From NCBI GenBank assembly GCA_000092065.1, contig CP000582.1: a stretch of 64,000 nucleotides of DNA; one strand, 5' to 3'. Under the pieces are notes generated by a model. It saw only the letters and a list, made by a program, of their open reading frames with translations. It searched no databases and was not told the origin of the DNA. Positions within the stretch are counted from its first letter, which is position 1; each line of letters starts with the position of its first letter. This document shows positions 1,091 to 37,485 of this stretch, in pieces. The DNA comes from Ostreococcus lucimarinus. Lineage: Eukaryota. A program made the position numbers and the translations under genes.

Positions 1091-2520
1091 CAGAATTTGT
1101 CCGCACGACACCGAGTTCTAATACTTATTCTCATACTGCGATCTTACCGGGAGTTCGAGGCGTACATCGCCCTAAATCGTATGGAGACAACTTCTCTGTG
1201 AACAGGAAAGGATATCCAATCTGGCCTTAAGTCTCCTGTAATATTGCAATTTTCATTGTACAAACTAGCTCTGCCGTCGTTCTAATCACTAAATTGAAGT
1301 TCACGCTTGCAGCTTCGTGTAAAAGTCGATTTCACGTTCGTAGGTATTTGCGTATTCGGATTCTCAAAGGTAGGCCCCTTGCCAGAGAGCCCCGTTATCT
1401 CTTGAATATTCGCCCAGTCGCCGCGCGTAAAGTTGTAGGTTTGCATCAAATTCAGGACGTCTGGTATACCATCTAGTTCTTTACCCCCTCGAGCTTGACT
1501 AAAAAGCGGACGAGTGAGCAACCGTTTTGTCAAAGAAGCGTACCAGAGGCAAAACTCAAGTTGAGTGCTGCAGCTCCTACCACTTGATCGAAAATGTTGA
1601 TACAACTCTGATAACAGCCGCTGCGATTTTGACTTTGACGACAACTTCCCCAAGAGACTTGGGAATCGATGAGTGTGGCGTTCAGCCTGACCAAATGTTT
1701 CTCTTGAGCCTCTGACGGCAGAGGTTGGCAGGACACATGAAACTATGTTCGCAGGAGGCATCATGGTCCAGTTTTGTGTCTTGTTTATTGTCGTCGCAAA
1801 CACATCTCCTTCTGCTACACGTGACGATGCCGCAGCAACGTGCACAATTCTTTGCAACTCGTTTGTACTGTCTCGCGGGCGCATACACGCATAGTTTTCT
1901 TGAACGAACAGAGGGATCATGTCTGAGTGCTGGAAAACCAGATTAAGCCTCTCATCGAGTGTTTTTAATGGGCTTGGACGAAAAAGAACATCTATTGCTT
2001 GAAAAACACTTGTGGCGACATCTTTTTTCGAAATTTCATTCCTTCCGTGATGCTTCGAGCTCATGCCCCATAGTTGTAGCTGGTTGATACTGGATCGAAG
2101 GTCATTGTTGTTTGCTTCTATGAGAGCATCAACTGCGTCGCTATCAACATCCAAGCGTTGTGAGGCTACAATTTGATTCAAGTACTTTCGGAGCTGGAGC
2201 TTATTTGGCCGTTGGAAAGGTAAATCGACACAATAGTTTGCAAGAGTCTTTAGTTTTTGTGAATATCGGTCGTTGCAGATGCATATGATGGGAATGCGCG
2301 TGTGTTTGATGACTTCTATCAACTCCGAGATACCACCCCGATCGCCACCAGCCATACCATCTACTTCATCCATGATCAGTGCAGTCTTTGTTGATCGCAA
2401 ACCATCAATACCGATGTTACGATTAGTTACAAACTCTCGAACAGTACTCGCCAATGTTCCCGCTATCCCATCACTTACTGCTCCAGTCTTACCTCTTGAA
2501 TCGCTTGCGTTTACGTTCAA
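1091..2520. repeat. Copy A of a 1.43-kb segmental duplication, identical to 3383..4812
   Basis: ORF-track pairs at a constant +2292 offset have identical translations (1294/3586, 1527/3819, 1530/3822, 1682/3974, 1725/4017, 2273/4565). Direct reading confirms identity from cagaatttgtccgcacgac through gcgtttacgttca. Divergence is sharp at both ends. Confidence 0.85.
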
Positions 2521-3141
2521 CGACGTGCACACGTCGTCGCCGAACAAATACCCCGCCCCTCGAGGGGAAAGCCCCCAGCCGGAGACGTCCTCGGGGTCGC
2601 TCCAAAGCAAATCGCACATCGCGCCTTCGTGCGGCACCTCTTGTTTACGATCGATCGTTCGAATCTGATCGATCGTCGTGATGCTCGGGGACAACCCCCC
2701 GTGCACGCAAAATATCTTGTTATCTATGAGCGCAGACAACGAAAGGTAATCGAACACATCCGTGCAATATCGCCACACGTTGACGCTCCCGTATTTGCGC
2801 AAACACTCGTCGTAAAACCCGTACACCTGCGTGATCTGTCGACACTCGTGATTCCCCCGAATGAGATACATTCGATCCGGGTACCTCACCTTCAGCGCCA
2901 GGAGCAACAAAAACGTCTCCACGCTGTAAAACCCGCGATCGACGAAGTCCCCCATGAACAAATAGTTTGTATCCGGGCAGTCGCCGCCGACTTTAAACAG
3001 TTCCAACAAATCGTAAAACTGCCCGTGAATGTCCCCGCATATCGTCATCGTTTGCTCGTTAATCCACCGCACGCGATCGAAATCGTCGCTCGAAAAGTCA
3101 CGCAGCGACGCCTTCGCGTCCCGCATCGCCGAACACATCAA
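1282..3141 (-). pseudogene. Chimeric in-frame ORF of 619 aa: a truncated PP2A/PP4-type catalytic core (about residues 25-230) fused to the RFC1 large-subunit region downstream of the P-loop, from the duplicated copy. Probably a non-functional chimera.
   Basis: The N-terminal 205 aa carry the PPP motifs GDIHGQ, GDFVDRG, GNHE, HGG and SPRGAGY but lack the C-terminal His and tail. The junction at 2520/2521 continues in-frame into [12 protein letters not shown], identical to residues 88-498 of the ORF at 3574..5070. The fragment lacks the Walker A motif GAPGIGKTT. Confidence 0.55.
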
Positions 3142-3382: not shown

Positions 3383-4812
3383 CAGAATTTGTCCGCACGA
3401 CACCGAGTTCTAATACTTATTCTCATACTGCGATCTTACCGGGAGTTCGAGGCGTACATCGCCCTAAATCGTATGGAGACAACTTCTCTGTGAACAGGAA
3501 AGGATATCCAATCTGGCCTTAAGTCTCCTGTAATATTGCAATTTTCATTGTACAAACTAGCTCTGCCGTCGTTCTAATCACTAAATTGAAGTTCACGCTT
3601 GCAGCTTCGTGTAAAAGTCGATTTCACGTTCGTAGGTATTTGCGTATTCGGATTCTCAAAGGTAGGCCCCTTGCCAGAGAGCCCCGTTATCTCTTGAATA
3701 TTCGCCCAGTCGCCGCGCGTAAAGTTGTAGGTTTGCATCAAATTCAGGACGTCTGGTATACCATCTAGTTCTTTACCCCCTCGAGCTTGACTAAAAAGCG
3801 GACGAGTGAGCAACCGTTTTGTCAAAGAAGCGTACCAGAGGCAAAACTCAAGTTGAGTGCTGCAGCTCCTACCACTTGATCGAAAATGTTGATACAACTC
3901 TGATAACAGCCGCTGCGATTTTGACTTTGACGACAACTTCCCCAAGAGACTTGGGAATCGATGAGTGTGGCGTTCAGCCTGACCAAATGTTTCTCTTGAG
4001 CCTCTGACGGCAGAGGTTGGCAGGACACATGAAACTATGTTCGCAGGAGGCATCATGGTCCAGTTTTGTGTCTTGTTTATTGTCGTCGCAAACACATCTC
4101 CTTCTGCTACACGTGACGATGCCGCAGCAACGTGCACAATTCTTTGCAACTCGTTTGTACTGTCTCGCGGGCGCATACACGCATAGTTTTCTTGAACGAA
4201 CAGAGGGATCATGTCTGAGTGCTGGAAAACCAGATTAAGCCTCTCATCGAGTGTTTTTAATGGGCTTGGACGAAAAAGAACATCTATTGCTTGAAAAACA
4301 CTTGTGGCGACATCTTTTTTCGAAATTTCATTCCTTCCGTGATGCTTCGAGCTCATGCCCCATAGTTGTAGCTGGTTGATACTGGATCGAAGGTCATTGT
4401 TGTTTGCTTCTATGAGAGCATCAACTGCGTCGCTATCAACATCCAAGCGTTGTGAGGCTACAATTTGATTCAAGTACTTTCGGAGCTGGAGCTTATTTGG
4501 CCGTTGGAAAGGTAAATCGACACAATAGTTTGCAAGAGTCTTTAGTTTTTGTGAATATCGGTCGTTGCAGATGCATATGATGGGAATGCGCGTGTGTTTG
4601 ATGACTTCTATCAACTCCGAGATACCACCCCGATCGCCACCAGCCATACCATCTACTTCATCCATGATCAGTGCAGTCTTTGTTGATCGCAAACCATCAA
4701 TACCGATGTTACGATTAGTTACAAACTCTCGAACAGTACTCGCCAATGTTCCCGCTATCCCATCACTTACTGCTCCAGTCTTACCTCTTGAATCGCTTGC
4801 GTTTACGTTCAT
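3383..4812. repeat. Copy B of the 1.43-kb segmental duplication. It lies inside the intact RFC1-like gene and includes about 190 bp of its 3' flank.
   Basis: Same as copy A. Copy B is embedded in a complete 498-aa RFC1-like ORF, so it is the likely parental copy. Confidence 0.85.
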
Positions 4813-5070
4813 CGTTTGAAATCCAAGTTCTCGGCAAATAAGGATGGCACTCGTGGTCTTGCCAATTCCAGGCGCTCCACTTATGAGTATTGCTTTTCGG
4901 GTCGACACTTTTGAAGCTTTTCCTGTGGCTTGATTCCCTGGCCAGTTTGAGAGCCAAGTTCGGAGAGTAGCGATGGCGCTACTATTTCCGACCAAGTCTG
5001 CGAGTACTCTCGGAGAAAATTTGTCAGTCCACAAATTTGCAGAATTTTCTATACCATAGTAGGCATGCAT
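3574..5070 (-). CDS. RFC1: Replication factor C large subunit (RFC1-like) AAA+ clamp-loader module. It has no BRCT region, which may be absent or on an unseen upstream exon.
   Basis: 498-aa ORF with LWTDKFSPRV...ILISGAPGIGKTT (Walker A), [15 protein letters not shown] (Walker B/sensor) and ICICNDR. The C-terminal domain resembles RFC1. An in-frame TAG lies 63 nt upstream of the ATG. Confidence 0.8.
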   Translation of the reverse strand: MHAYYGIENSANLWTDKFSPRVLADLVGNSSAIATLRTWLSNWPGNQATGKASKVSTRKAILISGAPGIGKTTSAILICRELGFQTMNVNASDSRGKTGAVSDGIAGTLASTVREFVTNRNIGIDGLRSTKTALIMDEVDGMAGGDRGGISELIEVIKHTRIPIICICNDRYSQKLKTLANYCVDLPFQRPNKLQLRKYLNQIVASQRLDVDSDAVDALIEANNNDLRSSINQLQLWGMSSKHHGRNEISKKDVATSVFQAIDVLFRPSPLKTLDERLNLVFQHSDMIPLFVQENYACMRPRDSTNELQRIVHVAAASSRVAEGDVFATTINKTQNWTMMPPANIVSCVLPTSAVRGSRETFGQAERHTHRFPSLLGKLSSKSKSQRLLSELYQHFRSSGRSCSTQLEFCLWYASLTKRLLTRPLFSQARGGKELDGIPDVLNLMQTYNFTRGDWANIQEITGLSGKGPTFENPNTQIPTNVKSTFTRSCKRELQFSD

Positions 5071-20582: not shown

Positions 20583-21379
20583 CGCCGGGTCCCTCGCGTC
20601 GCGCGCGACGCGCGGCGCGGCACAGTGCGGATGCGACGCCGACGCGACGACGAGGACGACGACGACGGCGCGCTCGCGCGCGCGATGGACGCCGCGCGGT
20701 GCGCGACGTCGACGACGACGCGCGAGCGGTGCGCGACGACGCGCGACGCCGCGGGCGCGGCGCGGCGGACGTGCGCGCGCGAGCGAATCGTCGAGCGGAA
20801 ATGTCCGGGACGGTGCGCGACGCGCGACGACGCGACGAGCGCGCGTTCGACGACGTCGAACGCGCGATGCGACGACGTCGAACGCGCGCTCGACCGCGAC
20901 GCGCGCGACGCGCGGCGTCGAACGCGGGACTGACGCGACGGGACGCGCGCAGCGCGCCGGAGACGCTCGAGCGAACGCGCGAGACGGTCGAGCGCGACGA
21001 CGACGACGCGGAAAACGCGATCGAACGCTCGAACGCGTGGTCGACGACGTGGTCGACGACGTCGTCGCTCGGCGGCGGGTTCGGCGACGGCGAGGATGGG
21101 ACGGCGGCGCGCGCGGCGGCGGCGGCGGCGCGAGCGCTCCTCGGGGGCGCGACGGAGCGCGATCGCGGGAAAGATTTCGGCGCGATCGAGCGCGGGATGC
21201 TCGACGCGTTCGTCGCGGGCGCGCGCGCGGTGGCGGCGGAGGTATCGCGCGCGGCGGACGCGCTGGAGACGAGAGGCGCGGACGACGCGGCGGACGGCGA
21301 GGACGACGCGAGGCGAATTCCGCCGCGCGCGTGAGCGCGGTCGAGCGCGCGCGCGACGACGCGACGCGGACGACGTGAA

Positions 21380-27170: not shown

Positions 27171-28829
27171 ATGGCGGCGCAGGCGAGGGCGTTGGAGTCC
27201 CAGGTGTGGCGCGAGCGGGACGAGGAACAGGACGACGACAAAGCATCGACGGCCGACGACCGGCGCGCGCAGGAAGAGGAGATGTCGATTCTCGTGAGTA
27301 TTTTCTGCGACTGCGCGAGAGGCGACGACGCGAACGCCGTGAGGGAGGCTTTGGCTTCGGGACGCGACGTCGGCGACGCGACTTCGAGCGGGCGGTTGTT
27401 TCGCGCAGAACTGGAGATCGACGTCGAGATCGACGGCGAAGCAGAGGTCTTGAACGGAGATTCCACGCATCTTGTTGCTGCTTTACCGCCGATATTTCTG
27501 GAATTCATCTTCCCGAGAAGGTATCCCTCGCGCGAGGCGCCGAAGTTCGTCATTCGTAGTGATTGGTTGTCGAACAGCCATTTGAGCGCGATGTGCGCGA
27601 GATTGGACGCCATATGGGAAGACCAGCGTCCAAACGGTGAGCCAATAGTGTATGAATGGACTCAATGGATAAAGAACGACGCGATGCGAGACGTATTGTT
27701 GAATGCGCAGGGCGCGCTCGACGTCTCAGCTCGAGGTCTTGGGTGGGCGGACGGCGAGTTTGAAGTCGACGCGAGAGCCGTCGTTACGGCTCGAGACGCG
27801 AATGAGGCGGTGTTTACGATTTTACGTGCAGACGCACATGCTAGACGACGAGCATTTCTGATCAGCTGCGATAATTCGTGCTCAATGTGCCTCGCGGATG
27901 ACATCAAAGGCGTCGACGTTCGACGAGTGTCGAGCGCCTGCGCGCACACGTATTGCGTCGAGTGCGTGACGCGCATGGCGCGCGTGCACGTGAGCGAAGG
28001 CTCTGTCTTACGCTTGGTCTGCCCGGAATGTTCGTGTGCGTTCGATCCTCATGTGCTGCGCGCCATTCTGAACCATGATGAGTATGAAAAGTATGAAGCC
28101 ACGCTGCTCGCGCGCACGCTCGACTCGATGGCGGATCTCGTGTACTGCCCTCGATGCGAGCATCCCGTTATTGAAGAAGAAGATCAAAATTTTGGGCGAT
28201 GTCCCGGTTGCTTCTTCGCTTTCTGCACGCTTTGCCGCGCGTCGTGGCACGCTGGGTCCGAGTGCCTCAACGCTGAGCAAAAGCTCGCGGTGCTCGAGGC
28301 GAGACGTCGCGGTGACTCGAAAATGTCCGAAGAAGCGTTGCGTCAGTACAAAGAACAAATCGCCGACGTATCCGCGGCCGCATACGTCGAACGGAACGGC
28401 CGCAAGTGCCCAGTGTGTGGTCAAGGGGTTGAGAAAAACGAAGGCTGCAACAAGATGACGTGCGCGTGCGGCGCCTACTTTTGTTGGAAGTGCGGTCAAA
28501 AGCTTGAAGGCGACGGGTATTCTCATTACCGAAACGTCAACGGCGAACCCGGCACGAGCACGTGTCAACTCTTCGACCTCGACGCCATCGAAGCGTGGGA
28601 GCGCGATATGGCCGCGCTTCGCGTCGACGGTCGCGCGCCTCGCGCGCCGAGAGCCGCCGACGTCATCTCCTGCATCCGCTGCAAGGCCCAAAACGTCGCC
28701 TTCGATCGAAACAACCACGTTCGATGTTGGGCCTGCAACTCTTCTTTTTGCGCCGCGTGCAGGCGCGTCGTTCTGAAGACGTCCGAGCACTACGCGCCGA
28801 GCGCCCCGTGCAAGCAGCACCGAAAGTGA
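27171..28829 (+). CDS. RBR-type E3 ubiquitin ligase (RING1-IBR-RING2) with an N-terminal RWD domain, RNF14/ARA54-like
   Basis: RWD-like N-terminus (EEEMSILVSIFCDC). RING1 CSMCLADD...CAHTYCVECV. IBR CPRCEHPV...CPGCFFAFCTLCRASWH. RING2 CPVCGQGVEKNEGCNKMTCACGAYFCWKCG. It starts 18 nt after the DPM2 stop. Confidence 0.75.
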   Translation: MAAQARALESQVWRERDEEQDDDKASTADDRRAQEEEMSILVSIFCDCARGDDANAVREALASGRDVGDATSSGRLFRAELEIDVEIDGEAEVLNGDSTHLVAALPPIFLEFIFPRRYPSREAPKFVIRSDWLSNSHLSAMCARLDAIWEDQRPNGEPIVYEWTQWIKNDAMRDVLLNAQGALDVSARGLGWADGEFEVDARAVVTARDANEAVFTILRADAHARRRAFLISCDNSCSMCLADDIKGVDVRRVSSACAHTYCVECVTRMARVHVSEGSVLRLVCPECSCAFDPHVLRAILNHDEYEKYEATLLARTLDSMADLVYCPRCEHPVIEEEDQNFGRCPGCFFAFCTLCRASWHAGSECLNAEQKLAVLEARRRGDSKMSEEALRQYKEQIADVSAAAYVERNGRKCPVCGQGVEKNEGCNKMTCACGAYFCWKCGQKLEGDGYSHYRNVNGEPGTSTCQLFDLDAIEAWERDMAALRVDGRAPRAPRAADVISCIRCKAQNVAFDRNNHVRCWACNSSFCAACRRVVLKTSEHYAPSAPCKQHRK

Positions 28830-29018
28830 AGCGAAAGCTTGAAAACTGAACGAAAGCTCTCACAGCGCCCTCGCGTTCCCGCACTCGCGCGCGCTCGATG
28901 TGATGGGCGCCGAGCGCCCCGTGCAAGCAGCACCGAAAGTGAAGCCAAAGCTTGAAAACTGAACGAAAGCTCTCACAGCGCCCTCGCGTTCTCGCACTCG
29001 CGCGCGCTCGATGTGATG
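28793..29018. repeat. Tandem duplication, 2 x about 113 bp with 2 mismatches, spanning the RNF14-like stop codon and the UreF start
   Basis: gcgccgagcgccccgtgcaagcagcaccgaaagtgaagc[g/c]aaagcttgaaaactgaacgaaagctctcacagcgccctcgcgtt[c/t]tcgcactcgcgcgcgctcgatgtgatgg occurs twice back-to-back. The second copy supplies the UreF ATG. Confidence 0.8.
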
Positions 29019-29843
29019 GAAGCGTTCGTTTTAATCGACCCGTTGCTACCGACGGGCGCGTTCGCGCACTCGCTCGGGCTCGAGCCCGCGCGAATCGCGC
29101 GCGCGGTCGGGACACTGGACGAGACGTCTCGCGAAGCCTCGCGCGCGGTCGAGACGTACGCGCGCGAGTGCGCGCAGAGCGCGATCGACGGTCAACTTCC
29201 GTTCGCGCTCGCCGCGCGCGCGCTCGCGGTGCGAGCGAACGAAAAACGCGCGCGCGAGGGAGACGAGGACGGGACGACGCGCGCGTGGCGAGCGGCGAAC
29301 GCGGAGTGCGCCGCGCTCTGCGCGTCGAACGCCGTGAATCGACGCGCGAGCGCGGGCACGGGCGCGGCTTTACTACGAGCGTCGATAGTGGCATTCGGCG
29401 AGGACAGAAGTTGGTACTTGAGGGCGATTAAAAGAACGCTGCGACGACCGCCGCCGCTCGGCTTGGGCGAGGCGCACCACGCGTGCGTCTTCGGCGCGGT
29501 GAGCGCGATCGCGAATTTAGACGCCGAGGCGTGCGCGCGCGCGTACGTGTACTGCATCATGCGCGATGTGTGCTCGGCGGCGACGCGATTGAACGCGAGC
29601 GGACCTTTGGAAACCGTCGCGGCGTTGCGGCGTTGCGTCGAAGACGCCGAGGCGGCGTGCGCCGTCGCCGTCGCCGAGTTCAACGCCTCCACCGTCCGCG
29701 CGTCGACGATCGACGACGACGACGACGATGACGACGACGCCATCATGAATTATCTCCGTCGCGCGCCGGCGACGTCGGCACCGATATACGAAGCCGTCCA
29801 GGGCGCGCACGACCACGCGCGCGCGCGCCTCTTCAACTCCTAG
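29013..29843 (+). CDS. UREF: Urease accessory protein UreF
   Basis: LIDPLLPTGAFAHSLGLE, CIMRDVCSAATRLNASGPLE, and C-terminal YEAVQGAHDHARARLFNS are colinear with plant UreF. Confidence 0.85.
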   Translation: MMEAFVLIDPLLPTGAFAHSLGLEPARIARAVGTLDETSREASRAVETYARECAQSAIDGQLPFALAARALAVRANEKRAREGDEDGTTRAWRAANAECAALCASNAVNRRASAGTGAALLRASIVAFGEDRSWYLRAIKRTLRRPPPLGLGEAHHACVFGAVSAIANLDAEACARAYVYCIMRDVCSAATRLNASGPLETVAALRRCVEDAEAACAVAVAEFNASTVRASTIDDDDDDDDDAIMNYLRRAPATSAPIYEAVQGAHDHARARLFNS

Positions 29844-30063
29844 CCTTCGCGTCGCGCGCACCTCTTCGACGGCCCGCGCGCGCGCGTCCCGCTGTATTTT
29901 CATTCATAGTTGTATTTTCATCCTCTGTACGTCACTCGCGCGCATTCGCGAACGCGCGAATTCGCGCGTAAAAAGGTCCCTTCGCGTCCGGAGGTCGGCC
30001 GCCCTTTCGGAAATCTCGTCAATCTCGACGCCCACTGTTTACCCATATCAGAAAATATGAGCC

Positions 30064-30133
30064 CGACGTTTCGAAACGTCGTTTCGGAACGTCGTTCCGA
30101 AACGACGTTTCGAAACGACGTTCCGGAACGACG
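30064..30133. promoter_or_regulatory. Array of 5.4 tandem 13-bp units G(A/T)CGTTYCGRAAC. Each unit contains a 10-bp perfect palindrome (GTTTCGAAAC or GTTCCGGAAC). The array lies about 270 bp upstream of the DUR3 ATG.
   Basis: Read directly: gacgtttcgaaac gtcgtttcggaac gtcgttccgaaac gacgtttcgaaac gacgttccggaac gacgg. Units 2 and 3 are reverse complements of each other, so the whole array is dyad-symmetric. The motif is not found elsewhere in the window. Confidence 0.5.
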
Positions 30134-30400
30134 GCGCGTGCATCGCCCGAGCCGACGCCGGCGCGGCAGTGCGAGACGCGCGAGTCGACTCCAAAGGTGC
30201 GACCGCGAGCGCTCTTCGCGCCATCTTCGTCACCGTCCATCGCGCGCGCGCGTTGTCTTCGTTCGAGCGCGCGGCGACGCGGCGACGATGGAGGCGAATC
30301 ACGATGGCGGCGCAAGTGACGACGCGATGACGTCGCGATGATTGCGCGATGCGGGGACTGACGATGACGCGCTTCGATCGGGCGACGCAGACACGCACAC

Positions 30401-32545
30401 TTGACATCAGCACACATGTCTTGCGAACAGTATGAAACCCTGGTCGGGAGCTCGTGCGTTCGCGACACGAGCTTCTTCGGCGGGAAAGCCGTGCTCCCCG
30501 AAGGCGCGGGCTACGGTATCGTCATCGGTTTCGGTTTGTTCTTCTCCCTCGCCACGGCGATCATCATGGGTCTCGATAAGCGTTACGGTGGGACGAACAT
30601 CTCGTCTGAATACTTCAACACCGCCGGTCGTAACGTGAAGACGGGTTTGACGGCGTCCGTCATCGTGTCCCAGTGGACGTGGGCGGCGACGCTCTTGCAA
30701 TCGTCCAACGTCGCGTACCAATATGGTGTCTCCGGACCGTTCTGGTACGCGTCCGGTGCGACGATTCAAGTTTTGCTCTTCGGTATGCTTGCCATTCAGG
30801 TGAAGCGATACGCGCCTAACGCGCACACTATTTGCGAAATCATCGACGCTCGATGGGGCGCGAACGTGCAAAAGGTCTTCATCTTCTTCTGCTTCTTGAC
30901 CAACGTCATTGTGTCTTCGATGCTCGTGCTCGGTGGTGCCGCCACGGTGAACGCGCTCACGGGTATGAACACCACCGCCGCTGGTTTTTTGATCCCGATC
31001 GGTGTCATTGCGTACACTATGGCTGGTGGCTTGAAGGCGACCTTCTTGGCGTCGTACATCCACACCGCCATCATCTTCGCTATTCTCATCACCTTCATCT
31101 ACATCGTGTACGCGGCCGACACCAAGCACGGTCTCGGCTCTCCGAGCAAAGTGTACGATCTCCTCCAGAGCGTCGCTCAGCGCAGTCCGACTTCAACCGA
31201 ATGCGTCGCTCGCCTTGCCGCCGACCAAAACTGCGGTCCGGTGGCCAAAAACCAAAAGGGCTCTTACTTGACCATGCTCTCTGAGGGTGGTGTCATCTTC
31301 GGTATCATCAACATCGTTGGTAACTTCGGTACCGTTTTCGTCGACCAATCGTACTGGCAATCCGCCATCGCGGCCAAGCCGAGCTCCTCCACCAAGGGTT
31401 ACCTCCTCGGCGGTCTCGTTTGGTTCACCATCCCCTTCGCCCTCGCCACCGCCATGGGTCTCGCCACCGTCGCTCTCGACTTGCCGGTCACCTCTGACGA
31501 AGCTGGTAAGGGTCTCGTGCCGCCCGCCATCGCCACCCACTTGATGGGTAAGGGTGGTGCCGCTGCGATCACCATCATGCTCTTCATGGCCATCGTGTCC
31601 ACGGGCTCCGCCGAGCAAATTGCCGTCTCCTCCTTGTTTGCGTACGATGTGTACCGCAAGTACATCAAACCGAACGCCACGGGTGAAGACATCCTTCGCG
31701 TGTCTCGTTACGGTGTCGTCGCCTTCGGTATTTTCATGGGTATCCTCTCCTTGATCCTCGACGAGCTTGGATTGTCCCTCGGTTTCGTGTACCTCATGAT
31801 GGGCATCTTCATCGGCTCCGCCGTCATGCCCATCTCTTTCGTTTTGACTTGGGACAAGGCGAACGCCAAGGGTGCCGTCATCGGCGCCATCAGCGGCCAA
31901 GTTCTTGGCTTGGTCACGTGGATCGTCACCGCTCAAGGCCTGTACAAGGCGGTCACCATCAAGACGCTCGGCGAAAACTACCCGATGCTCGCCGGTAACA
32001 TCGTCGCCATTTGCTCCTCGGGCATCATCCACGCGTTCATGTCCTTCCAAGATCCGCAAAACTTTGACTTCAGCACGCTGAACGATCGCATTCAACTCAT
32101 CGACGACAAGCTTCCGGAATTCGAACAAGATGAAGATTCCAATCCGAAGCAGCTCGAGGCCGCGCTCGCGTGGATCAAGAAGTGGGGCATTGGCTTCACC
32201 TTCGTCATGATTGTCCTCTGGCCGGTCTTCTCGCTCCCGGCGGGTTGCGGCACCTCCGCAGGCTGCGGTGTCTTCAACAAGGGTTACTTCAACCTTTGGG
32301 TTGGCATCGCCCTCGCGTGGGGCACCGTCGCCACCGCGGTGATCATCCTCCTGCCTGTGTACGAATCTTGGGATTCCATCTCCGTCGTCTTGAAGGGCAT
32401 GTTCACCAACGACGACGTGCACATGCGCATGGATGTCCTCGAAAGCAAGATCGACGCGCTTCTCGCGCCGGGCTCCACGAAGTCTACCGAGAAGTTGTCT
32501 CAGCAACCGGGTTACCGTGCGAAGCTCATCGCCGGCCACCTGTAA
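30401..32545 (+). CDS. DUR3: High-affinity urea transporter DUR3 (sodium:solute symporter family)
   Basis: 714 aa with about 15 TM helices and SSS-family features. The urease accessory genes flank it. Codon GC is moderate. A TGTAA sits about 130 nt past the stop. Confidence 0.85.
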   Translation: MTSAHMSCEQYETLVGSSCVRDTSFFGGKAVLPEGAGYGIVIGFGLFFSLATAIIMGLDKRYGGTNISSEYFNTAGRNVKTGLTASVIVSQWTWAATLLQSSNVAYQYGVSGPFWYASGATIQVLLFGMLAIQVKRYAPNAHTICEIIDARWGANVQKVFIFFCFLTNVIVSSMLVLGGAATVNALTGMNTTAAGFLIPIGVIAYTMAGGLKATFLASYIHTAIIFAILITFIYIVYAADTKHGLGSPSKVYDLLQSVAQRSPTSTECVARLAADQNCGPVAKNQKGSYLTMLSEGGVIFGIINIVGNFGTVFVDQSYWQSAIAAKPSSSTKGYLLGGLVWFTIPFALATAMGLATVALDLPVTSDEAGKGLVPPAIATHLMGKGGAAAITIMLFMAIVSTGSAEQIAVSSLFAYDVYRKYIKPNATGEDILRVSRYGVVAFGIFMGILSLILDELGLSLGFVYLMMGIFIGSAVMPISFVLTWDKANAKGAVIGAISGQVLGLVTWIVTAQGLYKAVTIKTLGENYPMLAGNIVAICSSGIIHAFMSFQDPQNFDFSTLNDRIQLIDDKLPEFEQDEDSNPKQLEAALAWIKKWGIGFTFVMIVLWPVFSLPAGCGTSAGCGVFNKGYFNLWVGIALAWGTVATAVIILLPVYESWDSISVVLKGMFTNDDVHMRMDVLESKIDALLAPGSTKSTEKLSQQPGYRAKLIAGHL

Positions 32546-32716: not shown

Positions 32717-35239
32717 TCACACGATAAAGTATCTTCTCGCGAGGGGCAGCTCTTGCGCAGGCTGACTTTTCAACACGACACCGTCTGCTCGAACCTCATA
32801 TGTTTCTGGATCGACTTCTATCCTCGGGCACGCGTTATTCAAAACCATATCGTCTTTGCTAAGGCCTCTGCATTTGACCACAGCCTCGACGCGTTTATTG
32901 AGACCGTACTCGGCGCCAACATCCGCGGCGGCGGCCGCGGCGCTCACGAACGCTATGCAAGTCTTCCCCGGTTTGAGAGCACCGAACATTCCTCGCATGA
33001 TGACAGGCTCAGGAGTCGGAATACTTGCATTTGGATCACCCATCTGCGCCCACGCGATTTGTCCGCCTTTAACGACGATTTCTGGCTTGGCGCCGAAGAA
33101 AGCTGGCTTCCAAATGACGACGTCGGCGAATTTTCCCACTTCTAGGCTGCCGACCTTGTGCGACATGCCATGAGCTATGGCAGGATTGATGGTATACTTC
33201 GCTACATACCGTTTCACCCGAACGTTATCCGCACCCGAGTTTGCATCTTCTTCAAGAAAACCTCGTTGTTCTTTATTAGAGTGTGCGGTTTGCCACGTGC
33301 GGCGAATGACTTCTCCGACCCGTCCCATGGCTTGCGAGTCGCTCGCCATGATACTAAGCGCACCCATATCGTGAAGAACATCTTCGGCCGCGATAGTTTC
33401 TGCACGAATGCGTGATTCAGCAAACGCAACGTCTTCCGGGATCTCGGGATCGAGATGATGGCACACCATGAGCATATCCAGATGCTCGTCCACGGTATTT
33501 TTTGTGTATGGTCGTGTTGGGTTCGTGGATGAAGGAAGGACCATTTTTTCACCACAAACCTTGATGATATCCGGCGCATGGCCACCACCAGCACCTTCAG
33601 AGTGATACGTATGAATAGTGCGACCTTTGAAAGCCTCAATGGATTTTTCGACGCAGCATGATTCGTTGAGCGTATCCGTGTGAATGGTGACGGCGACGTC
33701 GTACTCTTCTGCAATGGTGAGACAGTTGTCGATCGCAGCCGGTGTTGTGCCCCAATCCTCGTGTAGTTTCATACCGACAGCACCAGCTTTTATGATTTCG
33801 TGCAAGCCTTCGGGCGACGCCGTGTTTCCCTTGCCAGTGAACGCGAAATTGAGTGGTAGCGCATCCGTCGTCTCAAGCATGAACTGCATGTGCGCAGCAG
33901 AGGGCGTACACGTGGTCGCGCACGTTCCCGACGCTGGTCCTGTACCGCCGCCAAGGAGGGTTGTGATGCCGCTAGCGACAGCCTCAGTGCACAGTTGCGG
34001 ACAAATGTAGTGAATGTGCGTGTCCAGTGCTCCCGCGGTGACGATACATCCTTCCGCGGCAATGGCTTCGGTATTCACGCCGACAACCATCCCAGGGGTC
34101 ACGTCAGCGACGTCTGGATTACCACCGTGACCTATACCAACGATGTGACCATCTTTAATGCCGATATCAGCCTTATAAATACCACTATGATCGACTATCA
34201 GTGCGTTCGTGATGATTGTGTCGAGAGAATCAGCGTCGCCGACACCCGCCTGCTGCGACATTCCCTCGCGAAGCGTCTTACCGCCGCCAAATTTGGATTC
34301 TTCACCTTTCATCGTCAAGTCGCGCTCGGGGGTGATGTAAAGGTTCGTATCTCCCAGTCGTACGCGATCACCGATTGTGGGTCCGTACATGTGCGCGTAC
34401 TTGTGTCTCGGAATCATCAACGGCTCACCTTCGCCCAAATCGTCAGCGTCGACGTGCCCGAAGCCGCCGTCGATCACCCGCTTCATGACTTCGTCCAACC
34501 GATCCGCGGTCGCGGGTCCATTCACCAAATTGTTCCCACCTTTGACCACCCGGTTACCAGCGATATTCACCATATTCACAGTTTTCGACTCTCCAGGCTC
34601 GAATCGCACCGCCGTGCCGCTCGGAATGGCCAAACGCGCTCCGTACGCTCGCCGGCGATCAAACGTCAGAAACCGATTCGCCTCGATGAGGTGAAAGTGG
34701 CTTCCCACTTGAATCGGTCGATCACACGTGTTCGTTACCTTCAGTTTTCGTTTCGGTCTTCCCGCCAGGAGCTCTAAAGAATCCTTCGACGTACGAACCT
34801 CCCCCGGCGCCGGTGTCTTCTCCTTTGTCGCCGGAGGAAACGCCTTCTCGCTCGGTTTCGGTAAAAACGATCCCAGCAGCGCGAGTTCGAGATCGACGTC
34901 ATCCGCACATATCGCATCGTGAATCGTGATCAACTTCGTCCCATCGTCGAACGTCGTCTCTATCTGCACGTCGCCCACGAGTTCCGGGACGCCGTCGAGC
35001 ACGTGTCGTCGTCCGAGCACGCGCTTTCCCAAATCCTGCACCTCCACCGACGTCAGCGCGCGCCGTTCCCCGTCCTTATCGAACTTTGGATCTCTCACGA
35101 GCTCGACGCACTGCATCGCGATCAACGCCACGGCCTCCGGGTGGTTCAAACGCATTCCACGCGCGAGTCTTCGCTGCGCCACGCGTCCCGCGGCGAAGAG
35201 AATGTTCAGTTTATCGATCTCACACGGCGTGAGACGCAT
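32717..35239 (-). CDS. URE: Urease, single-chain eukaryotic type (fused gamma-beta-alpha), 840 aa
   Basis: Starts [41 protein letters not shown] (gamma), then the beta and alpha domains with metal-centre motifs (HTHYICPQ, the MVCHHLD His pair, GGGHAPD). The ORF-track start at 35869 is a spurious upstream extension. The ATG was re-estimated at 35239 in ORF-track coordinates. Confidence 0.9.
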
Positions 35240-35485
35240 CGTTCGCGCGCCTTCTTTCGCCGACGACGCCGCGAGCTTTGATATGTTCGTCCGCGTTGGC
35301 GCCCGCGACCCGGCGACGCTTCCGCGCGCGAGAAAGTGCCGCGCGACGCGCGATGCGAAAAGCGCACTTTTCCGCGACCTTTCGCGACGCGTCACCGCGC
35401 GACGCCCCTGGGCGCTTCGACGGCCCGCGCGCGCGACGGCGGCGCGACGGTGGCTCAAAAATCGATCGCGCGACGGCTCGGCGCG

Positions 35486-36286
35486 ATGTCCGGCGACGCG
35501 CACGCGCACGCGCACTCGCACGGGAGCGATGAGGTGGAATTCGGCGAATTGCACGCGCACGACGGCTTGAAGCCGCACCGACACGAGCGGTTGTACGGAC
35601 CGGGATCGTTCGCGAAGCGCCGGAAGGGCGCGAAAGTTCGAGCGCAAACGTTCGCCGATCGCGCGTACACGGTCGGGATCGGAGGACCCGTGGGCACGGG
35701 GAAGACGGCGCTGACGCTGGCGCTGTGTCGAGCGCTGCGGGACGCGTACGACGTCACGGCGGTGACGAACGACATCTTCACCAGGGAGGATGGAGAGTTT
35801 TTGATCGCGAACGATGCGTTGGGAGATGCGAATCGCATTCGAGCGGTTGAGACGGGAGGGTGCCCGCACGCGGCGATCCGGGAGGATATATCGAGTAATC
35901 TGAACGCCGTCGAAGACCTCACGGCGGCGTATCCGGATTGCGATTTATGTTTGATGGAGAGCGGCGGCGATAATTTAGCGGCGAATTATTCGCGCGAGCT
36001 CGCGGATTACATCGTGTACGTCATCGATGTGTGTGGCGGGGATAAGATTCCGCGAAAAGGTGGACCAGGGGTGACGCAGGCGGATTTATTAGTCGTCAAC
36101 AAGTGCGAGCTCGCCGACGCCGTCGGCGCGTCGCTCGAAGTCATGGAACGCGACGCCAAGATCCAGCGCGAGGACGGCCCGGTGGTCATGGCGCAGGTCA
36201 AGAAAGGCGTCGGCGTGCGAGAGATCGCTCAGCACATCCTCGACGATTGGGCCGCGCAGACCGGGCGCGAGAAGAAACCGTTCTAG
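35486..36286 (+). CDS. UREG: Urease accessory GTPase UreG with a His-rich N-terminus
   Basis: [16 protein letters not shown] (His-rich, plant-like), P-loop [30 protein letters not shown]. Divergent from urease with about 245 bp between the start codons. Confidence 0.9.
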
Positions 36287-36474: not shown

Positions 36475-37485
36475 ATGCGTCGCGCGTTCGCCGGTGACTC
36501 TTCAGCGCGGCGCGCGTGTTCCATCGCCGCGCTCGACGTCACGCGCGCCAACGGCCGTTCCGCGGTGACGCGATGCTACGCGGAGTACCCGGTAAAGTAT
36601 CTCACGCCCAAGCGCGGGATCGATGGCGATTGCGATTGCGCGTGGGCGTACGCGGTGAACATGGGCGGCGGTTTGGTGAGCGGCGACGCGAGCGGGACGA
36701 CGATTCGCGTGGACGACGGATGCGCTTTGGCGTTGGCGACGCAAGGCACGCAAAAGGTGTATAAACATAATAAACGACGATGGAATGACGATGCGAAGGC
36801 GGGCGAGGGTGATGGACGATCGAATGTGGGGGAGACCACGTCGGCGCTGTACGCGAGCGTCGGCGACGGCGGGTTGTTGGCGTTGCTACCAGATCCTACG
36901 CAAATATTCGCCGATGCCGTGTTTCGACAGACGCAAACGATCGATATGCACGAACATGGGTCGTGCGTGTGCGTGGATTGGATAACGGCGGGAAGGGTCG
37001 GGTACGGAAACGAGCGATGGGCGTTCAAGAGGGCGGACGTGCGCACGCGCGTGACGTCAAACGGCGAACCCGTCGTCGTCGAAGCCACGCGTCTAGAGGC
37101 GTCTTCGCGCGATTCACTGAACGCCGAAATCTCGCTCGCGATGAGAATGGGTGCGGTGAACGTGGTCGCGTCGCTCATCATCGTCGGTCCCCGCGTGCGG
37201 GAACTCGCGAAATCGTGCGGCGATTGGGCCCGCGATTCGGCGACGCGCAGTATGGCTCACGGCGGCGCTTCCTGGGTGCGCGCTTCCCCTGGCAGCGTCA
37301 CACAAACCGACCCACAATCAAAATTTTTCGTTTCTGCGAGCGATTTACCCCTCCCACACTCCGGCATCGTCCTCCGTTTCTTCGCCGCGGATTCCGAATC
37401 CGTGCAAGACGTCCTCCGCTCGCTTCTCGCCCCGCTCGCGTCTCAGCTCGGCGCTCCTCCCTACGACGAGCGCGGCGGTTCCTGA
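36475..37485 (+). CDS. URED: Urease accessory protein UreD
   Basis: RSAVTRCYAEYPVKYLTP, GGGLVSGD, LALATQGTQKVYK, LLALLPDP, VDWITAGR, and C-terminal SLLAPLASQLGAPPYDE are colinear with plant UreD. Confidence 0.85.
   Translation: MRRAFAGDSSARRACSIAALDVTRANGRSAVTRCYAEYPVKYLTPKRGIDGDCDCAWAYAVNMGGGLVSGDASGTTIRVDDGCALALATQGTQKVYKHNKRRWNDDAKAGEGDGRSNVGETTSALYASVGDGGLLALLPDPTQIFADAVFRQTQTIDMHEHGSCVCVDWITAGRVGYGNERWAFKRADVRTRVTSNGEPVVVEATRLEASSRDSLNAEISLAMRMGAVNVVASLIIVGPRVRELAKSCGDWARDSATRSMAHGGASWVRASPGSVTQTDPQSKFFVSASDLPLPHSGIVLRFFAADSESVQDVLRSLLAPLASQLGAPPYDERGGS

Follow-up and report, generated by a model that had tools for sequence, protein, structure and literature searches.

A 70-bp array of short palindromes upstream of the urea transporter gene DUR3 in Ostreococcus lucimarinus is, on balance, probably a lineage-restricted hypervariable minisatellite (VNTR) in a non-conserved, distal part of the DUR3 promoter. 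It is probably not a conserved nitrogen switch, and any effect on DUR3 would likely be quantitative. We analysed the array within a stretch of 64,000 nucleotides of contig CP000582.1 (here called the window), and compared it with metagenome contigs of the same species and with the corresponding loci of related lineages.

Read directly, positions 30064-30133 of the window run CGAC GTTTCGAAAC GTC GTTTCGGAAC GTC GTTCCGAAAC GAC GTTTCGAAAC GAC GTTCCGGAAC GAC G. Tandem Repeats Finder reports a period of 13 in 5.4 copies (85% matches, score 98), that is, head-to-tail copies of a unit within the 10-100 bp range of minisatellites. Across the 64 kb, GTTYCGRAAC is matched exactly five times where chance predicts 0.70, and none of 100 shuffles reached five. 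Every one of these matches belongs to the array (30068-30129), at a spacing of exactly 13 bp. When one mismatch is allowed, 16 matches are observed against 13.4 expected, and the 11 beyond the array are at chance level. In the reference allele, only one position (GTTTC versus GTTCC) varies among the ten half-sites. The structure of the array is real and statistically solid, and the original prediction of five palindromes at 13-bp spacing, in 5.4 tandem units and with no further copy in the window, stands in each of these points. An alternative core, AACGWCGTT, adds nothing to this description (five matches versus 1.7 expected, four of them in the array). The features of the locus are collected in the table.

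Table. Features of the UreF-DUR3 region and its surroundings (window coordinates; a point in the strand column marks features without strand)
Feature	Position	Strand	Basis or remark
UreF urease accessory protein ORF, upstream neighbour	29013-29843	+	PF01730
UreF-downstream block conserved with sister lineage	29888-29978	+	Pairwise alignment
Lone TTTCGGAA copy, 56 bp 5' of array	30005-30012	.	Left end of ~50-bp segment inverted in sister lineage
13-bp x 5.4 tandem array (minisatellite)	30064-30133	.	Consensus unit CGACGTTTCGAAA; Tandem Repeats Finder; direct-repeat family D1; polymorphic in 27 contigs
57-bp near-perfect palindrome, units 1-4, centre T30092	30064-30120	.	Inverted-repeat pair I2; folds as 24-bp hairpin stem
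Unit 1, GTTTCGAAAC	30068-30077	.	Perfect palindrome; pattern match
Unit 2, GTTTCGGAAC	30081-30090	.	Reverse complement of unit 3; pattern match
Unit 3, GTTCCGAAAC	30094-30103	.	Pattern match
Unit 4, GTTTCGAAAC	30107-30116	.	Perfect palindrome; pattern match
Unit 5, GTTCCGGAAC	30120-30129	.	Perfect palindrome; ATG distance equals that of CTTCCGGAAAC in sister lineage L007
GAGTCGACTC palindrome	30182-30191	.	Only copy in window; invariant in population; resembles GAGTCATGACTC of O. tauri and L011 DUR3 promoters, not positionally orthologous
Proximal DUR3 promoter / 5' leader block	30314-30415	+	~97% identical to sister lineage; partly kept in O. tauri (GGGGACTGACGA, CGACGCAGAC, CTTGAYATC)
DUR3 urea-proton symporter (SSF)	30416-32545	+	Pfam; look-up matches same contigs as XP_001416230.1, O. 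lucimarinus CCE9901
Urease	32717-35869	-	Pfam
UreD	36475-37485	+	Pfam

The array is highly polymorphic within O. lucimarinus. Our population sample consisted of marine metagenome contigs that encode an identical or one-residue-variant DUR3 and are 99-99.9% identical to the window. It comprises 27 independent contigs from assemblies that may be chimeras of strains: 26 contain the complete array and one (L017) part of it. Six alleles occur among the 26 complete contigs, and L017 carries a seventh, partial one. Allele A (nine contigs, including the window) is the reference form with five perfect units. Allele D is equally frequent in the sample (9/26 each) and has three units, U-GAC-U-GAC-GTTCCGAAAC, where U is GTTTCGAAAC; these two major alleles differ in length by 26 bp. 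Allele B (four contigs) reads GTTTCGAAAC GTC GTTTCGAC GAC CTTTCGAAAC GAC GTACGTTCGAAAC GAC GTTTCGAAAC, and its intact palindromes number only two. Allele C (two contigs) equals allele B minus an ACG insertion; both contain broken units and keep two to three palindromes intact. Single contigs carry allele D', with three pure units, and allele E, which has three units too but shows a G-to-C change and ends in GTC. Every allele has at least two perfect palindromes, and the presence of the array is fixed in the species.

This variation is concentrated in the array itself, which is the most variable part of a spacer that is otherwise ~99% identical among same-species contigs. Aligning 13 complete copies of the 572-bp spacer gives 59 variable columns, of which 34 fall inside the 70-bp array; the 284 bp from the array to the DUR3 ATG hold five variants, all singletons. 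Polymorphism of both copy number and unit sequence within a species is what characterizes a minisatellite, and the array displays both. An assembly artefact is ruled out, as the same alleles appear in independent short-read assemblies from several projects and different assemblers. Coding sequence is ruled out as well: the 26-bp difference between the major alleles leaves no reading frame through the array, and the ORFs across the region are of the spurious type found in GC-rich DNA.

A separate site of variation lies just past the UreF stop codon, at 29851-29876, where two sharply distinct haplotypes are separated by 13 linked differences (including 3-bp and 1-bp indels). Array alleles A and B are each found on both haplotypes, which implies either recombination within ~200 bp or chimeric metagenome assembly.

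The array is also strongly symmetric. Its 13-bp unit, GTTTCGAAAC+GAC, is its own reverse complement; units 2 and 3 mirror each other, and the spacers change from GTC to GAC at the centre. The two arms of the palindrome formed by units 1-4 (30064-30091 and 30093-30120, 28 nt each with 1 nt between them) are 96% complementary, and a second register that takes in unit 5 pairs 30077-30104 with 30106-30133 at 93%. The original prediction had called the array as a whole self-complementary; this is true of units 1-4 (57 bp, 96%) and does not extend to the full 70 bp, where the arms are 88% complementary. If GC-rich low-complexity (CG/CGA-type) repeat tracts are set aside, the array is the best palindrome of the window. 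Another inverted repeat, CGAGCGCGCGTTCGACGACGTCG / CGACGACGTCGAACGCGCGCTCG, is present at 20836-20892 in a region of 75% GC (23-nt arms, 96% complementary, 11 nt between them).

The predicted fold agrees with the cruciform or hairpin potential that had been proposed. As single-stranded DNA, the array forms a perfect stem of 24 bp with a dG of -36 kcal/mol (z = -6.3, DNA fold). Long near-perfect arms, a very short spacer and a stable hairpin are the marks of a cruciform-capable inverted repeat, and the array has all of these. Strong hairpins are predicted for all six complete alleles (dG -18 to -36 kcal/mol, z -3.2 to -6.3); alleles B and C are damaged only at the centre, and their outer arms still pair. 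Hairpin potential is found in every allele because the unit is symmetric, and it is therefore no evidence of selection.

Minisatellites occupy a single locus and do not form dispersed families. We scanned the JGI metagenome collection (241 million records) for two adjacent units (GTTYCGRAACGWCGTTYCGRAAC). Six contigs matched, five of which are this same locus; the sixth, L018 (JACCDR012710997.1), is an unrelated GC-rich, bacterial-looking contig. Viral contigs gave no match to the two-unit pattern, and the only match in the prokaryote genome set was a 23-bp palindrome, attributable to chance, in Parabacteroides. The array is a single-locus feature, neither a repeat family nor a mobile element: the metagenome, viral and prokaryote scans return this locus and two unrelated matches. 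A common dispersed repeat, the possibility against which the original prediction was to be judged, is not what the scans reveal, and a dispersed repeat or MITE is ruled out by the window, metagenome, viral and prokaryote scans, which yielded no multiple copies.

Contig L018 is of some interest in its own right. At 230-590 it carries seven copies of GTTCCGGAAC (0.17 expected) at irregular spacing, 5' of an HTH-like ORF; the cluster looks like a plasmid, ICE or phage iteron/operator array. It resembles the Ostreococcus array in that an identical palindrome is repeated in an intergenic region, but it differs in the irregular spacing within 350 bp, in the bacterial-looking GC-rich contig and in having no flank homology to the array locus.

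As originally described, the array lies in the UreF-DUR3 spacer upstream of DUR3. It occupies -352 to -283 relative to the DUR3 ATG and starts 221 nt past the UreF stop codon. Six upstream ATGs separate it from the start codon. This suggests that DUR3 transcription begins near the ATG, in which case the array would be promoter-distal DNA and not 5' UTR. Pairwise alignment with the sister lineage places it in the rearranged middle of the spacer, flanked by two conserved blocks (29888-29978 and 30314-30415), the first of which is probably the UreF 3' UTR and poly(A) region.

Two further features of the window concern its gene content. A 113-bp tandem duplication (two copies, 98% match) at 28794-29019 reaches from the end of the RBR/IBR ligase ORF into the start of UreF. 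It is single copy in every same-species metagenome contig covering the region, and is either a strain-specific duplication or a reference-assembly artefact. Far upstream, adjacent ORFs at 1282-3141 and 3574-5070 (minus strand) each have an RFC1 C-terminal domain, which is joined in one of them to a calcineurin-like phosphoesterase domain and in its neighbour to the AAA ATPase domain. They sit in the lowest-GC part of the window (0.485-0.50) and may represent a partial gene duplication, or unmodelled introns.

The gene order PHD protein, DPM2, RBR ligase, UreF, DUR3, urease, UreG, UreD is kept in all relatives fetched. At these syntenic loci GTTYCGRAAC is missing from O. tauri (two strains), O. 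mediterraneus, L009, L011 and L035. The array thus fails the conservation check that the original prediction had named, and lacks the presence in orthologous promoters that defines a conserved cis-regulatory module. Tandem duplications are frequent in these spacers and polymorphic, with two copies of 113 bp found in the window alone and three of 91 bp in O. tauri. In both strains of O. tauri (DUR3 95% identical) the spacer contains three 91-bp tandem repeats, each with a 14-bp palindrome, CGAGTCATGACTCG. The array aligns to the last 91-bp unit, and both end ~45-50 bp 5' of a common GACGCGCGAG anchor. The O. tauri repeat is similar to the array in its spacer, in its equivalent position 5' of GACGCGCGAG and in being tandem with a perfect palindrome. 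It differs in its unrelated sequence, in a unit seven times longer and in having three copies in both sequenced strains. In addition, the palindrome of the O. tauri repeat recurs in L009 and L011, whereas the GTTYCGRAAC of the array does not. In these two lineages (DUR3 ~90% identical), the spacer of L011 has GAGTCNNGACTC twice (3567-3578 and 3665-3676) and that of L009 has GACGAGTCACGAGTCGTC and ACGAGTTATGACTCGT; O. mediterraneus has only a split GACGTTTCG...(22 nt)...TTCGAAACGAC.

The closest relative, the sister lineage L007/L048, shares ~94% nucleotide identity over aligned, mostly coding, sequence. Its counterpart of the array consists of 2-3 degenerate units (GCTTCG.CGAAGC, GTAAAC, CTTCCGGAAAC or GTTTCCGGAAAC), the last of which lies 288-299 bp from the ATG, the distance of unit 5 in the window. 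Aligned to the window, L007, L048 and L049 are interrupted by many 1-nt gaps, coding DNA included; L049, for example, shows 39 gap openings over 4.6 kb. Residual errors of long-read assembly are the probable cause, and the fine detail of the array in these contigs is uncertain. A ~50-bp segment, CCTTTCGG...CACTGTTTACCCATAT (16-nt exact core), found at 30001-30050 in the window, is inverted in L007 (3630-3680) and L048 (820-880). It has TTCG/CGAA palindromic units at its borders, and L048 adds a local 21-bp duplication.

Several other elements of these spacers were seen along the way. The palindrome GAGTC(N0-2)GACTC occurs 5' of DUR3 three times in O. tauri (L029 2440-2700, in the 91-bp repeat), in two copies in L011 and in related form in L009; O. 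lucimarinus has it once, as GAGTCGACTC at 30182-30191, the only copy in 64 kb. These palindromes contain TGACTC cores, which are GCN4/AP-1-like, and GAGTC(N0-2)GACTC is a better-conserved candidate DUR3 cis-element than the array. The string CGAAACGACG, which corresponds to the 3' part of an array unit plus the following G, is present in the UreF-DUR3 spacer of L009 (3648-3657, at -353) and L011 (3701-3710, at -300 from the ATG). It is the sole copy in the ~10-kb locus of L009, and L011 has one further copy elsewhere. This may be an older seed of the array, or chance; the two lineages are closely related and amount to one independent observation, for which p ~0.01 is a rough estimate, so that the match serves only as a lead. 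Finally, two O. mediterraneus contigs from the same sample (L031 and L034, JGI 3300016823) are alike over the last ~60 bp 5' of the DUR3 ATG and then diverge, L031 having a short 280-bp spacer to UreF and L034 the conserved GGGGACTGACGA block. Both look transcriptome-derived, and the split may reflect splicing or read-through isoforms.

The symmetry of the unit offers a plausible account of how such an array could change. Any two self-complementary units are both direct and inverted repeats of each other. Slipped-strand events or unequal exchange would then gain or lose whole units, as between the 3- and 5-unit alleles (26 bp). Hairpin-templated switching or inversion between units, on the other hand, would flip spacers from GAC to GTC and mirror half-site variants, and could thereby generate the 57-bp palindrome of the reference allele. 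Flanking DNA may likewise have been inverted, giving the ~50-bp reversed segment of the sister lineage. The same family of events could explain the mirror pair GTTTCGGAAC/GTTCCGAAAC around T30092, together with the degraded centres and intact outer arms of alleles B and C. If the array affects DUR3 transcription at all, it would most likely do so quantitatively, via spacing, nucleosome exclusion or site dosage.

Both parts of this account have counterparts in known systems. Template-switch mutagenesis at quasi-palindromes (inverted repeats) and instability of palindrome centres are known in bacteria and yeast. The array is comparable in its mirror-image variants, its spacer flip at the centre and its eroded centres with outer arms kept (alleles B and C); it differs in that the process is deduced here from allele comparison alone. 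Promoter VNTRs and microsatellites with evolvable expression have been described in yeast and human promoters, and Vinces and colleagues are said to have shown in 2009 that promoter tandem repeats make gene expression evolvable. Like these, the array is a short head-to-tail promoter repeat that is polymorphic in copy number in nature, is specific to its locus and turns over much faster than its flanks. Unlike them, it has a perfect palindrome as its unit rather than AT-rich or low-complexity sequence, and its units flip in orientation besides changing in number. The array is best classed as a promoter VNTR whose unit is, unusually, palindromic throughout.

The alternative that deserves most attention is a homotypic cluster of sites for a dimeric factor, bound to GTTYCGRAAC (or to the alternating palindrome AACGWCGTT), which drives or tunes DUR3; three versus five units would then set expression levels in nature. 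We consider this possible but doubtful. In its favour, DUR3 protein increases in O. tauri deprived of nitrogen (PMC7407893) and the array lies ~280-350 bp 5' of the DUR3 ATG; the sister lineage retains a TTCCGGAAAC unit at the same ATG distance, and the two major alleles are equally frequent (9 and 9 of 26). Some observations speak for bound sites and, by the same token, count against the minisatellite reading, such as the fixed presence of the array with at least two perfect palindromes in all alleles. Selection could explain the restriction of half-site variation to one position as well as copying between units does. The different palindrome repeated at an equivalent position (GAGTCATGACTC, three times in O. 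tauri and twice in L011) could point to selection converging on repeated sites for a dimer instead of to a mutational hotspot. A further point against the minisatellite reading is that the CGAAACGACG matches at about -300 to -350 in L009 and L011 hint at an older seed element. On the other side, the 64-kb window has no exact copy elsewhere, including the promoters of urease/UreG, UreD and UreF, and its one-mismatch matches are at chance level. The array is missing from the five more distant lineages named above, and alleles with deleted, frameshifted or mutated units are common. Nor do CGRAA-type motifs show unusual clustering 5' of DUR3 in other lineages; a cluster of CGRAA half-sites conserved in all lineages is not supported, as its density of 2-3 per 70 bp is equalled in coding windows of the same loci. 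A 13-bp period would also place neighbouring sites ~86 degrees apart on the helix. Our literature search linked GTTYCGRAAC to no factor, returned no report of the motif as a transcription-factor site and found no description of the Ostreococcus DUR3 promoter. HSF and STAT sites are ruled out by the spacing, and the poor fit had been noted originally. A heat-shock element consists of at least three contiguous alternating nGAAn/nTTCn units in 5-bp register. The array too has TTC and GAA inverted, and unit 5 (GTTCCGGAAC) fits one TTCnnGAA pair, but TTC and GAA are 0 or 1 nt apart in most units (0, 1 or 2 nt overall), the 13-bp period breaks the 5-bp register and there is no run of three units. 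This sole HSE-like unit is, moreover, missing from most alleles. STAT/GAS sites are ruled out by the same gaps of 0-2 nt, compared with TTC-N3-GAA (or N4). Altogether, the array does not behave like the strong candidate for a nutrient-responsive cis-regulatory module that was first proposed: it is unconserved, no other segment of the spacer is as polymorphic, common alleles break several of its palindromes and its motif is missing at the other urea-gene promoters of the window. A more specific proposal, which we think unlikely, is that the array is a tunable enhancer in which each unit binds a dimeric factor. The 3- and 5-unit classes would then cause heritable differences in urea uptake among wild O. 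lucimarinus, and O. tauri would have arrived at the same architecture independently with another palindrome. If this were true, self-complementary repeat units would form a distinct mutational class, inverting as well as expanding.

Other explanations start from the inverted repeat itself. A cruciform or hairpin formed under negative supercoiling might mark the UreF/DUR3 boundary, affect nucleosome placement or stall replication. The array does follow the probable UreF 3' end and precede the DUR3 promoter, and the strong predicted hairpins of all six complete alleles, with damage in B and C restricted to the centre, are in line with such a role. Nevertheless, we regard it as improbable, given that the hairpins follow automatically from a tandem self-complementary unit and are no evidence of selection, that related species without the array have the same gene pair and that the 3-unit alleles have short arms. 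Moreover, to our knowledge, eukaryotic Pol II termination uses no hairpins. Least credible of all, and very improbable in our view, is a mobile-element remnant or terminal inverted repeat (MITE-like), or a gene for a structured RNA or miRNA-like hairpin. Apart from the inverted-repeat structure, this would draw on weak, generic Rfam hairpin matches to miRNA precursor models; the best reaches 32.5 bits against a gathering threshold of 105, no Rfam match comes near its gathering score and a known RNA family is ruled out. A MITE or transposon terminal repeat has dispersed copies, terminal inverted repeats and target-site duplications, whereas this locus is unique: the scan of 241 million metagenome records, long same-species contigs among them, returned this one locus, and the window has no second copy. 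As far as we know, Ostreococcus has neither Dicer nor Argonaute, which counts against a miRNA-like product.

The minisatellite reading has several consequences for the biology of Ostreococcus. DUR3 is a high-affinity urea transporter, and O. lucimarinus is among the most abundant marine picoeukaryotes. A copy-number polymorphism in its DUR3 promoter, visible in ocean metagenomes, could serve to test in the wild whether promoter repeats tune nutrient uptake. The array alleles could also mark strains in populations of O. lucimarinus at high resolution. Lastly, the non-conservation of the array redirects the search for the real nitrogen-responsive elements of DUR3, for which the proximal block at 30314-30415 and the GAGTC..GACTC palindromes are better candidates for conserved control.
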